From a virus (lineage: Duplodnaviria > Heunggongvirae > Uroviricota > Caudoviricetes), in IMG/VR virus record IMGVR_UViG_2671181134_000015: a stretch of DNA of 38,518 bases; one strand, 5' to 3'. Below, piece by piece: positions 15,299-17,344 of the stretch. A program made the translations under genes and the position numbers. Each line of letters opens with the position of its first letter. Positions within the stretch are counted from its first letter, which is position 1. The notes beneath the pieces are model-generated. The model saw only the letters and a program-made list of their open reading frames with translations. It was not told the DNA's origin and did not search any database.

Positions 15299-17344
15299 TT
15301 ATGCGGCGTTGCTGTTATTGATATCCACCGTCACATACTCAATCAGCACGGGGTAGGTGTCCTTGTTACTGGTGATATCCGTGATCAGCAGTTTGTCGTT
15401 ATCCAGTCCTGCCGCCGGGCATTTCGCCAGATTAAAGGCCGCCTGGGTCTGACCGTTGATGACCGGTGTCACGCTGATGCTGTTATTTCCGGCAAACCGG
15501 AACACCACGTTGTGCCAGTTATGATTAAATGCCCCGAAGGTTCCCAGTTTTGCATTCTGTTGTTTGTGCTGCATCAGATTCAGGTTTGCGCTGTCGCTCT
15601 GGATGAAGAAGGCGGCCAGCATATCGTTTCCTGCGCTGCCTTCCAGAACAACGTTTTCAGGTAGCTGAGAAACCGGCCAGTGCAGAGCCATGGCGAAGCG
15701 GTTTTCTGCCAGCTGAACACCTTCCGGGATTTTGAAACGAAAGGCAATTTCCCCGCCTTTCTGAAGTAATTCAGCTGCTTTACTTGCAGGCACATCGTGG
15801 GCGATTTTCCAGGCTGTTTGTTGCCCCTGGACTTTTTCCACTCGCATGGCTTTACCGCTCTCAGCAGCAGAGTCATTTACGACGGAGGCTTTTCCATCTG
15901 CCCCTGTCCAGCCCTGTTCTTTCAGTTTCCCTTCCTGTGCGTCTGCGCGATAAGCGACGGCCGTTGTTCTTGCCGGTGATGACTGCGTACCTGCGCCCGG
16001 CTGAGGTGCAGGTGTGTAGGGCTGCGGGCTTTCCGTGGTGGTGCTGTCTGAACCGGCCGTGGCGGGAGGTACTGCGACCACGCTGAACGGTGCGGGTGCA
16101 CCTTTCAGGAAGGCGACGGTCTTCCCGGCATGCATCAGGATCGCCGTTGCCAGGCGGTCAGAAATAATGCCGCGGCGGGCCCATGAACTGAAATGCGTGG
16201 CGCGATCTGAAGAGGTCCAGTTTCCGTTACTACGGGATGCAGCACCGTAATAACCGGCTTCTGCCAGGTCAGGATCTTCGGCAGGCAGGTTTGTTGGCGT
16301 GTTAGCACCTTTCTCATCGGTCATCAGGGGCACAAAATAAATTTTTTGCGCTTCTTTGTTCTGATATGCACCGTAAACCACCGGGTACTGAGAGGTATAT
16401 TGTTGTTTCCAGATATAGGTGGTATCGCCGCAAATCCAGGGAACAAGTGATGCGTTGCCTCCGGTGCACTGTGCAGCATATGCGCTGAGATCTGCGCGGA
16501 ACTGATTCACCATGTTCAGGAATAATTGCGGGTGCTGTGCGTATGTTGCTGATTTCAGATCAAACTCTCCCAGCATCCAGACCACGGATAACAGGACGTT
16601 TTTGGGGTTTTTATCCAGCGCGGCTTTTGTACGGGTAAGCAGATCGTTATACAGCGGTTTGCCGACGCCCCACAGGGATGATTCGGCCGTTGCTCCTGAA
16701 GATTCACTGAATGCCCCCTCAGCGCCGGAAGTAAGCGCTGACCCTCCACTACAGCAAGGTACCAGGAGGATCCCTGCATTTTTCGGGATAAACGCCAGTA
16801 ATTTTTTGGCAATATGTAAACCCTGTCCGACGCAGCCATACTGACCTTTTGACAGATCGGCGTTCGGATGATTAAGGCTGCTCATATCCTGTACATCATG
16901 GAGACAGTGATCTGCCGGAATAATATCGTTATAGGTACATGCAGCGCCGCCCGGTGTTACCGTACTGCGACGCGCTAACTGTTTAATTCGTGGATCAGGA
17001 CTGTCGAATGTATCCGGTAATGGCAGCCCCTCACCGTATGCCATGCCATTGGACTGACCAGCCAGTGGCACCACATAATAAAACTCTGGCTCAGTTGTGT
17101 GTCCAGTGTTGTATCCGTCGGTAGTGCCCGGTACGGGTTTTTCCTCGCCTTCTGGTACCGGAATGGCTGATGGCAGGTCTCTGTCAGTGACCAGTGCCTG
17201 CATCAGGTAAAATGGTGCTCCCGGCTCTGATGCTGAGACAGGTCCCCCAAGAAGTCCCCATCCTTCCCTGAGCATGGGCGCAAGTTTTTCGGCAAGTTCC
17301 TTGTTCGTCATTGCCGTCACAAGCTGATAATGTTTCGGTACCAT
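15299..17344 (-). CDS. Putative carbohydrate esterase resembling prophage sialate O-acetylesterase NanS-p (DUF1737-like N-terminus, GQSN-motif esterase core, C-terminal beta-rich domain)
   Basis: LAGQSNGMAYG resembles the GQSNM catalytic motif of the SASA/DUF303 family; N-terminal 50 aa resemble DUF1737 of NanS-p proteins; start placed at MVPKHYQ with GGAG RBS. Confidence 0.55.
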   Translation of the reverse strand: MVPKHYQLVTAMTNKELAEKLAPMLREGWGLLGGPVSASEPGAPFYLMQALVTDRDLPSAIPVPEGEEKPVPGTTDGYNTGHTTEPEFYYVVPLAGQSNGMAYGEGLPLPDTFDSPDPRIKQLARRSTVTPGGAACTYNDIIPADHCLHDVQDMSSLNHPNADLSKGQYGCVGQGLHIAKKLLAFIPKNAGILLVPCCSGGSALTSGAEGAFSESSGATAESSLWGVGKPLYNDLLTRTKAALDKNPKNVLLSVVWMLGEFDLKSATYAQHPQLFLNMVNQFRADLSAYAAQCTGGNASLVPWICGDTTYIWKQQYTSQYPVVYGAYQNKEAQKIYFVPLMTDEKGANTPTNLPAEDPDLAEAGYYGAASRSNGNWTSSDRATHFSSWARRGIISDRLATAILMHAGKTVAFLKGAPAPFSVVAVPPATAGSDSTTTESPQPYTPAPQPGAGTQSSPARTTAVAYRADAQEGKLKEQGWTGADGKASVVNDSAAESGKAMRVEKVQGQQTAWKIAHDVPASKAAELLQKGGEIAFRFKIPEGVQLAENRFAMALHWPVSQLPENVVLEGSAGNDMLAAFFIQSDSANLNLMQHKQQNAKLGTFGAFNHNWHNVVFRFAGNNSISVTPVINGQTQAAFNLAKCPAAGLDNDKLLITDITSNKDTYPVLIEYVTVDINNSNAA

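Follow-up and report, generated by a model that had tools for sequence, protein, structure and literature searches.

The window analyzed here, a stretch of 38,518 nucleotides (nt) from a tailed-phage record of IMG/VR (IMGVR_UViG_2671181134_000015), contains on its minus strand at 15299..17344 a gene for a 681-residue protein resembling NanS-p, the sialate O-acetylesterase of Escherichia coli prophages. The gene call agrees with the open reading frame (ORF) and with matches in Pfam, PHROG (phrog_143) and the PDB, and its stop codon lies at 15299-15301. Coordinates are those of the whole stretch, and esterase residues are numbered on the 681-residue form unless a 688-residue ORF is stated; the latter is the maximal ORF of the gene (15299..17365, minus strand). 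We prefer the start at 17344 (MVPKHYQL...) because it has GGAG 5 nt upstream, lines up with the starts of homologs (MAFKHY..., MTSKNF...) and is the equivalent of the start placed by RefSeq in identical prophages, and because the ATG at 17365, which overlaps the last codons of lysC, has no Shine-Dalgarno sequence. The esterase gene begins 8 nt past the lysC stop codon with its own ribosome-binding site, and its N-terminus (MVPKHYQLVTAMTNKELAEKL...) has, by inspection only, no hydrophobic signal-peptide core. We conclude that it probably encodes a NanS-p-family prophage sialate O-acetylesterase and belongs to the fixed late genes of its P2-family (Peduoviridae) host prophage.

The protein comprises three domains joined by two linkers, all encoded on the minus strand. 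The N-terminal DUF1737 domain (residues 1-54; 17183..17344) belongs to a P2-family subclass with the beta2-beta3 hairpin loop 'EPGAPFYLMQA' and scores 31.3 bits against Pfam (PF08410, curated cutoff 24). Linker 1 (residues 55-86; 17087..17182) is predicted to be disordered (predicted local distance difference test, pLDDT, <50 at 62-82) and contains no SSP motif. It leads into an SGNH/SASA catalytic domain (residues 87-410; 16115..17086) with the blocks GQSNG, SGGSAL, MLGEFD and RATHFS, which gives a partial match of 37.1 bits to SASA (curated cutoff 24.8). Linker 2 (residues 411-459; 15968..16114) is rich in Pro, Thr and Ser and contains 'QSSPA', and the C-terminal lectin-like jelly-roll domain (residues 460-681; 15302..15967) scores 135.8 bits against DUF6645 (curated cutoff 27). 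In a phmmer search against the PDB, residues 83-404 (90-411 in the 688-residue ORF) match E. coli NanS/YjhS (3pt5_A, E=3.7e-118) and residues 460-676 (467-683 in the 688-residue ORF) match the NanS-p C-terminal domain (6yp6_A, E=9.2e-60). PHROG 143 covers the protein end to end (E=8.6e-294), and 347 records of the phage collection carry a homolog at 50-57% identity, their names being overwhelmingly those of Shiga toxin (Stx)-converting or other E. coli phages. NCBIfam holds no model for the esterase, and RefSeq labels it only as a 'DUF6645 domain-containing protein', its sequence having long been public.

This is the three-domain architecture described for NanS-p (PMC10462455; PMC8065619), and the window protein shows the sequence features of that family, the QGE motif excepted. 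The initial annotation, made from the sequence, had claimed a 681-residue ORF with the motif LAGQSNGMAYG, a DUF1737-like N-terminus and a NanS-p domain architecture, and had proposed searches with SASA and DUF1737 profiles as a check. The ORF list and translation contain this frame and motif, both profiles match above cutoff, all three domains are present, and the 3pt5 match identifies the GQSN motif as that of a true NanS-type SASA protein and not of an unrelated SGNH hydrolase. Chromosomal NanS, the gene for which is located in a sialic-acid catabolism locus, has a homologous catalytic domain and shares the Ser/His active site lacking a block V Asp; it is a single domain of about 330 residues, whereas the phage-borne window protein adds DUF1737 and a lectin-like domain.

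The surrounding prophage is clearly of the P2 family. It adjoins serS and has a 99.8% identical copy in E. coli LZSFT34, which is annotated with ogr, D, tail sheath and tube, tape measure, tail fiber, baseplate, S, R, lysis, X, L, M, N and O genes as well as terminase, portal, replication gene A, cox and integrase. The P2 gene order is present (Q P, then O N M L X Y K lysB/C R S V W J I H G, then FI FII E T U D, then ogr), and Pfam tags at identical loci include Phage_cap_P2, Phage_GPO_N, Phage_GPL and Phage_tail_X, among others, with LysC in the window itself. Directly upstream of the esterase gene lies a lysis cassette (17355..18708, minus strand) of holin (18424-18708), lysozyme (17895-18437), Rz-like LysB (17473-17898) and the Rz1-like spanin LysC (17355-17564); no lysA homolog is present in the window's phage. 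Downstream and in the same orientation follow a gene for a small DUF1378 protein (14979..15152) and the tail completion genes gpR (14496-14963; P2_Phage_GpR, 137 bits) and gpS (13868-14512; Phage_tail_S, 98.7 bits). Thus a P2-like prophage as the carrier, a position between the lysis genes and gene R, and a small membrane-protein gene just downstream, all anticipated by the initial annotation, are borne out by Pfam, gene order and the RefSeq prophage.

The DUF1378 protein has 57 residues, with one N-terminal hydrophobic helix and a basic/polar tail, and is assigned to its family by Pfam (94.8 bits; phrog_494, of unknown function). It is separated from the esterase gene by an AT-rich spacer of 146 nt (15153..15298, minus strand; GC content 0.40) that is nearly identical to the spacer of a lambdoid prophage and folds no more stably than expected (z=-1.1 versus shuffles).

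This near-identity is part of a larger recombination patch. In four complete E. coli genomes a lambdoid prophage esterase has 93-94% DNA identity to the window, only over approximately 15094-17090. These prophages have a 933W/phi24B-type head and the order Q ... esterase-DUF1378-DUF826-holin-lysozyme. By direct alignment the patch common to the window and this lambdoid copy occupies 15094..17085 with 94.1% nucleotide identity (1885/2004 aligned columns) versus 46-49% in the flanks, namely 46% in the DUF1737 and linker part (17086-17344) and 49% in the distal part of DUF1378 (14979-15093). It opens with the initial codons of the catalytic domain, takes in the stop codon and all 146 nt of the spacer, and extends about 19 codons into DUF1378, its left breakpoint coinciding with the 3' end of linker 1. 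Since both breakpoints lie inside coding sequence, the patch bears the mark of homologous recombination between two esterase-DUF1378 modules that already existed, and not of a foreign cassette having been inserted. Such recombination with lambdoid phages has exchanged the segment from the catalytic domain over the lectin domain and spacer to the 5' end of DUF1378.

Synonymous divergence (dS) of 0.14-0.22 within the patch and omega values of 0.15 (catalytic) and 0.10 (C-terminal) against the lambdoid copy show that the exchange is not very recent and that the protein has been under purifying selection. The catalytic and C-terminal domains are 95-96% identical at the protein level to the lambdoid allele L002. 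This type of esterase body is rare and was seen only in the window's P2-family lineage and the four lambdoid prophages, the best identity among 80 IMG/VR relatives being 55-60%. All 73 close lambdoid relatives with enough sequence have DUF1378 no more than 400 nt downstream of the esterase, none of 75 relatives of a second P2-borne allele (the 4/1-1 type, below) has it, and some other P2-family lineages do. This distribution indicates that DUF1378 travels with particular esterase body lineages and is not required for carriage by P2-family prophages, in agreement with a patch that spans both genes.

Five IMG/VR contigs are P2/lambdoid hybrids whose junction coincides with the esterase gene or falls within it. 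In L092 and L093, P2 gpN and lysB precede a P2-type esterase and then a lambdoid holin (accompanied by lysozyme in L092); in L100 and L113, P2 gpR and gpS come after an esterase whose N-terminus is of lambdoid type; and L223 contains both P2 and lambdoid markers. These contigs are either draft-assembly chimeras over a shared repeat or real products of recombination or inversion between prophages.

The comparison with the lambdoid proteins clarifies what is shared and what is not. The lambdoid NanS-p proteins (z1466/L0105 of 933W; vb_24B_21 = gp84 of phi24B) have the same three domains; they also lack a signal peptide, as the window protein does by inspection, and their adjacency to lysis genes, neighboring DUF1378 gene and late-gene expression match features of the window, the last of these a predicted one. 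The named Stx-phage proteins are approximately 50-57% identical overall to the window protein, which differs in reading LGE in block III. They are encoded between Q/stx and the holin, whereas the window gene follows the spanins and precedes R and S on a P2-family myophage. The window DUF1737 also forms a separate subclass, with a longer beta2-beta3 loop, no equivalent of Tyr42 and no SISSP motif. Of the proposal in the initial annotation of a different vehicle for the same metabolic cargo, the P2 carrier is supported; the protein carried has a lambdoid-like catalytic and lectin body with a P2-specific DUF1737, and may or may not serve the same metabolic role. Relative to described NanS-p, the differences are the Peduoviridae vehicle, the operon position and the DUF1737 subclass.

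A second P2-borne allele occupies exactly the same site. The best match to the window DUF1737 in the phage collection is a Peduoviridae record with the gene directly after lysC, annotated as 'unknown protein encoded within prophage CP-933V', and in E. coli 4/1-1 a 625-residue DUF1737-SASA-DUF6645 protein (WP_000202148.1; also vB_EcoM-705R2) is encoded precisely between lysC and gpR. This sister allele shares the site, architecture and DUF1737 loop subclass of the window protein; it is 54% identical to it overall, has intact QGE and RGGSAF motifs, and is not accompanied by DUF1378. It is likewise mosaic: its catalytic (85-89%) and C-terminal (91-97%) parts resemble a different lambdoid lineage, its N-terminus is distinct, and in lambdoid genomes DNA homology to it begins only past the DUF1737 part.

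The lysC-esterase junction of the 4/1-1 type (coverage of at least 80%) was detected in 375 of 5,426 complete E. coli genomes, and the window's allele type in 12 of the 5,426, so that the arrangement as such is by no means rare. Carriers of the sister allele include human, animal, food and wastewater isolates and are not limited to Shiga toxin-producing strains. An assembly collection indexes the window's gpR in 4,220 blocks, and the prophage is accordingly widespread, CU928162.2 (strain ED1a) being among its carriers. No megablast-level relative of the structural genes was found among deposited phage genomes, and the P2-type N-terminus occurs in only 3 of 50,697 phage records. A scan of one genome per species with strict patterns returned five loci, and statements on host range made here cover Escherichia only. 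An 809-nt contig of Salmonella enterica (P0002) encodes an N-terminal fragment of a DUF1737 esterase with the loop 'APGAPFYLMQA', intermediate between P2-borne and lambdoid forms, which by its sequence hints that the P2-type module also occurs in Salmonella. The NanS-p literature names Stx and 'non-Stx' prophages without naming P2-type carriers, and in a search that left three primary NanS/NanS-p papers outside its reach, no publication was found that connects nanS-p with P2-like phages or Peduoviridae or that mentions DUF6645.

The part of the protein that distinguishes the P2-borne alleles is DUF1737. We sorted 169 esterase loci by neighboring marker genes and N-terminal type. Lambdoid loci have four DUF1737 types: A, the phi24B type, with the loop 'STAGYG', Tyr42 and Gly54-SISSP; B, with 'AITPYTLMQ'; C, with 'YTDDG'; and D, with 'YDDNG'. 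A fifth class, E, comprises 16 lambdoid loci (L052-L054, L062, L064, L066-L070, L072, L073, L080, L081 and others) whose N-terminus is unlike DUF1737 and starts MSDS(Q/K)WKMLSAMPGEF...; these loci have a different downstream gene set, with a DUF1378 65-69% identical to that of the window. Among lambdoid phages, too, the N-terminal type follows the head-gene set, albeit not one-to-one: types C and D occur with one set, A with the 933W head and B with two sets.

The window and the 4/1-1 type have in common a longer loop, 'EPGxPxYLMQA'. A P2 clade defined by overall identity from these two alleles was dropped, the window domain lying about equally far from both neighbors (48% identity to the second P2 allele, 44-48% to type B). 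Three further alleles sharing the loop (P0003, P0004 and P0005) are each located in a P2-family prophage, immediately past its lysis cassette, and with these alleles and the loop indel the P2 group is resolved: the five P2-borne domains are 50-72% identical to one another and 22-44% identical to types A-D, and they group in a neighbor-joining tree. A scan of all IMG/VR contigs with the back-translated loop motif recovered 34 contigs, all 34 with P2-family markers (three are P2/lambdoid hybrids). A homolog search with the N-terminal 111 residues returned mostly fragments at contig ends, which were used only as sequence variants. The window DUF1737 is thus a P2-family-specific version of the domain, and it may be the part that must fit the carrier phage.

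An AlphaFold (AF2) model of the first 111 residues has beta1 at 5-11, alpha1 at 14-26, beta2 at 30-38, a loop at 39-45 and beta3 at 46-53 (pLDDT 80-87), the same beta-alpha-beta-beta topology as published for the phi24B domain. The P2-specific motif falls on the beta2-beta3 hairpin, the element that bears Tyr42 in type A, and no Tyr42 equivalent is present in the window. The part that differs between vehicles is therefore the equivalent of the part reported to touch the capsid. A fold search of the PDB with the model gave nothing significant, only weak matches to dodecin (E about 0.1 or worse). BFVD contains DUF1737-fold proteins of approximately 55-140 residues, mostly <80, in many unrelated phages and in the giant viruses Harvfovirus, Yasminevirus, Edafosvirus and Hyperionvirus, indicating that the domain is not restricted to tailed-phage capsids.

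The position of the gene bears on its expression. The tail genes R and S are essential to P2, and P2-type late promoters sit in the divergent gpO/gpP region. Because both genes lie downstream of the esterase in the same orientation, late transcription must cross the esterase and DUF1378. Searches in and around the module found neither a sigma-70-like promoter on the coding strand nor a convincing terminator above chance, and the spacer hairpin was ruled out as a terminator given its fold score and the lack of an adjacent U-run. A TGT-N12-ACA dyad in the gpO/gpP region (22375..22392, plus strand) is a candidate Ogr-type late promoter element for the operon.

The initial annotation regarded the gene as a moron, and this holds only in part. 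A related P2-family remnant has an empty site at which lysC runs directly into gpR, as in P2 itself, so that the module is optional at the level of the P2 family; against this, the module has no promoter or terminator above chance, and all 20 places that encode an identical gpR or LysB carry lysC-esterase-DUF1378-gpR, one with an insertion sequence element past DUF1378 and another with a frame-broken copy. Neither joined-flank megablast nor exact gpR and LysB protein look-ups revealed an empty-site relative of the window's own lineage. GC content falls from 0.55-0.58 in the flanks to 0.53 in the esterase body and to 0.40-0.43 in the spacer and DUF1378. In its behavior the esterase thus seems unlike a classical moron.

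Two loci of the window's prophage type show that the module decays in some hosts: in L187 the esterase is frame-broken and called as four fragments, and in L189 an insertion sequence element with transposase genes lies between DUF1378 and gpR. Elsewhere in the window, a low-GC island at approximately 26000-27500 (0.43-0.45 versus 0.53-0.60 around it), between the portal and replication genes, contains a TumE-family toxin-antitoxin gene and an HVO_A0114-family DNA-binding gene and looks more like a classical moron than the esterase does. According to the LZSFT34 annotation, the stretch from serS to the ogr end contains two tandem Hok/Gef-family toxin genes on the minus strand (approximately 1531-1671 and 2003-2143), and the early region at approximately 33500-34700 encodes a DNA adenine methylase, a ParE-like toxin and a 3'-5' exonuclease.

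The catalytic domain can be read against the conserved SGNH blocks of NanS, 17-GQSNA-21, 120-RGGSAF-125, 178-MQGEFD-183 and R-x-SHFS-303 (PMC10792757), of which block I, G-Q-S-N, supplies the nucleophile Ser and the oxyanion Gln (PMC10792757; PMC9487903). Block III, (H)QGE, sets SASA proteins apart and positions the block I Gln in the oxyanion hole, and substitutions in it are said to abolish activity (PMC9487903). The window protein keeps the nucleophile Ser, block I Gln, block III Glu and block V His, its RATHFS aligning to R-S-SHFS (His301) of 3pt5, and the Gly residues of block II are retained in SGGSAL.

The biochemistry of NanS-p and its late-gene expression have been summarized (PMC8065619; PMC8319020), and lambdoid NanS-p is co-expressed with late genes and increases on induction (PMC8065619). 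We propose that the window esterase would be co-transcribed with head, lysis and tail genes from an Ogr-dependent late promoter upstream of gpO and would build up in the cytoplasm of induced cells. Because no signal peptide is apparent on inspection, it should leave the cell only at lysis, which the neighboring holin, endolysin and spanins would bring about. Outside the cell its Ser (GQSN)/His (RATHFS) site would strip 7-, 8- or 9-O-acetyl groups from mucin sialic acids or from free Neu5,9Ac2, with the lectin-like domain holding the enzyme on the glycan.

Several points weigh against this picture of a soluble, lysis-released enzyme. The esterase function of the P2-borne alleles is a prediction from sequence, the lack of a signal peptide was judged by eye, and late-operon transcription is presumed from the biology of P2; the gpO/gpP dyad is the sole promoter evidence, and such dyads are no more frequent in the window than expected by chance. 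Block III reads MLGEFD, so that the conserved (H)QGE is LGE, albeit with the Glu kept. Block II has a private Ser at codon 199 (window position 16750, AGT versus CGT) where 19 of 19 other intact alleles have Arg. Finally, the phi24B homolog gp84 has been reported on the capsid, bound by way of its DUF1737 (10.64898/2026.04.10.717836), so that a role as soluble metabolic cargo is seriously rivaled.

According to that report (2026 preprint), gp84 is a capsid decoration protein whose DUF1737 (residues 2-57; a single helix plus three strands in antiparallel arrangement) forms hexamers that bind hexon centers, with the Tyr42 loop acting as a 'tooth', and gp84 is cut at SSP-containing linkers (10.64898/2026.04.10.717836). 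By extension, the window protein might be mainly a virion component, its P2-specific DUF1737 docking on capsomers of gpN, encoded at 20348-21448, so that heads carry the esterase and lectin domains; we hold this to be clearly less probable than the soluble enzyme but a serious contender. A virion-bound esterase and lectin could bind and de-O-acetylate mucus sialoglycans, affecting retention in or passage through mucus in the manner of receptor-destroying hemagglutinin-esterases. The viral proteins concerned (influenza C HEF and coronavirus or torovirus HE) likewise combine an SGNH sialate-O-acetylesterase with a lectin on the particle (PMC9487903), but the likeness is by analogy only: they belong to a different SGNH family, in which the esterase domain is split, and lack homology at the sequence level, and for the window protein a place on the virion is hypothetical.

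The virion interpretation draws on the shared topology of the modeled domain and the placement of the P2-specific motif on the equivalent hairpin. N-terminal type also tracks head-gene type, the P2 loop occurring with P2 heads in 13 of 14 cases, then in 34 of 34 and then in three of three, types C and D with a third head set and type A with the 933W head, while bodies of the enzyme pass from one lineage to another. In the window's lineage the gene is a fixture located among structural genes, and linker 1 lacks the SSP motif proposed in the preprint as the cleavage site, 'QSSPA' being found in linker 2. Counting on the other side, capsid binding has been claimed in a single preprint, for a T=9 capsid built from another major capsid protein. 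In the closest pair DUF1737 has 59% identity against 91% for gpN, a markedly faster divergence of the domain; lambdoid type B occurs with two head-gene sets, and the P2-family N-terminus adjoins head and lysis genes, so that simple linkage could yield the association. Proteins with the fold occur also in giant viruses, and some P2-family prophages have no esterase at the lysC-gpR site. We know of no decoration protein on P2 capsids, and this too counts against a virion role. Docking of the P2-type domain on gpN is accordingly attractive but unproven. The fuller proposition, that P2-family phages possess their own lineage of DUF1737 capsid anchors and decorate their heads with esterase and lectin domains, the body being swapped with lambdoid phages while the anchor stays matched to the capsid, is more doubtful still; to our knowledge, P2 heads are regarded as undecorated.

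A second alternative to the soluble esterase is a protein that keeps the fold, has lost all or much of its enzyme activity and serves as a glycan-binding module only. LGE is common to all P2-borne alleles of the window's lineage, and in the surveyed loci 167 of 169 homologs have QGE, with LGE only in the window and its lambdoid twin; to this the window copy adds the private R199S, at a position where NanS and both comparison alleles also have Arg, and alteration of the QGE network reportedly destroys activity (PMC9487903). Against loss of function, the nucleophile Ser, block I Gln, block III Glu and His are intact, and omega is 0.15 across the catalytic domain. In a wider family set (313 representatives at E <=0.001 among 1.84 billion proteins, of which 101 cover block III), the position is Gln in 90 and Leu in four, one of the latter being a fragment from the window's own lineage. 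Leu is thus the commonest alternative to Gln, and the other three Leu-bearing members are distant and keep the other key residues. The block II position equivalent to residue 199 is also variable across the family (R 39, Y 37, F 13, S 2), and R199S could be a real mutation of the strain or a sequencing error. We therefore consider an inactive enzyme unlikely; esterase activity of the window protein is likely from its sequence, but not safe to assume.

Least probable by far is a bacterial substrate: the enzyme would take O-acetyl groups off the O-antigen or a sialic-acid capsule and so aid adsorption of progeny or alter the lysogen surface. This has been raised as an open possibility for NanS-p (PMC8065619) and a virion-attached esterase would be correctly placed for it, but the characterized NanS and NanS-p enzymes act on O-acetylated sialic acids (PMC8065619; PMC8319020), the phi24B homolog is attached to the head and not the tail (10.64898/2026.04.10.717836), and nothing in the locus ties the esterase to tail fibers.

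NanS-p has so far been studied almost only as an accessory of Stx phages in pathogenic E. coli. The present analysis places the family as a standing component of P2-family prophages, present in this vehicle in about 7% of complete E. coli genomes, and identifies the esterase gene as a shared stretch of homology through which P2-type and lambdoid prophages exchange DNA. A vehicle-specific DUF1737 joined to an exchangeable body is what would be expected if DUF1737 is a capsid adaptor, and the P2-borne alleles provide an independent comparative handle on the claim made for phi24B. If the esterase is virion-bound, this would bear on the behavior of temperate coliphages in intestinal mucus, and NanS-p-type proteins would be enzymes of modular build, displayed on the virion for life in mucus, rather than chiefly metabolic gifts to the lysogen.

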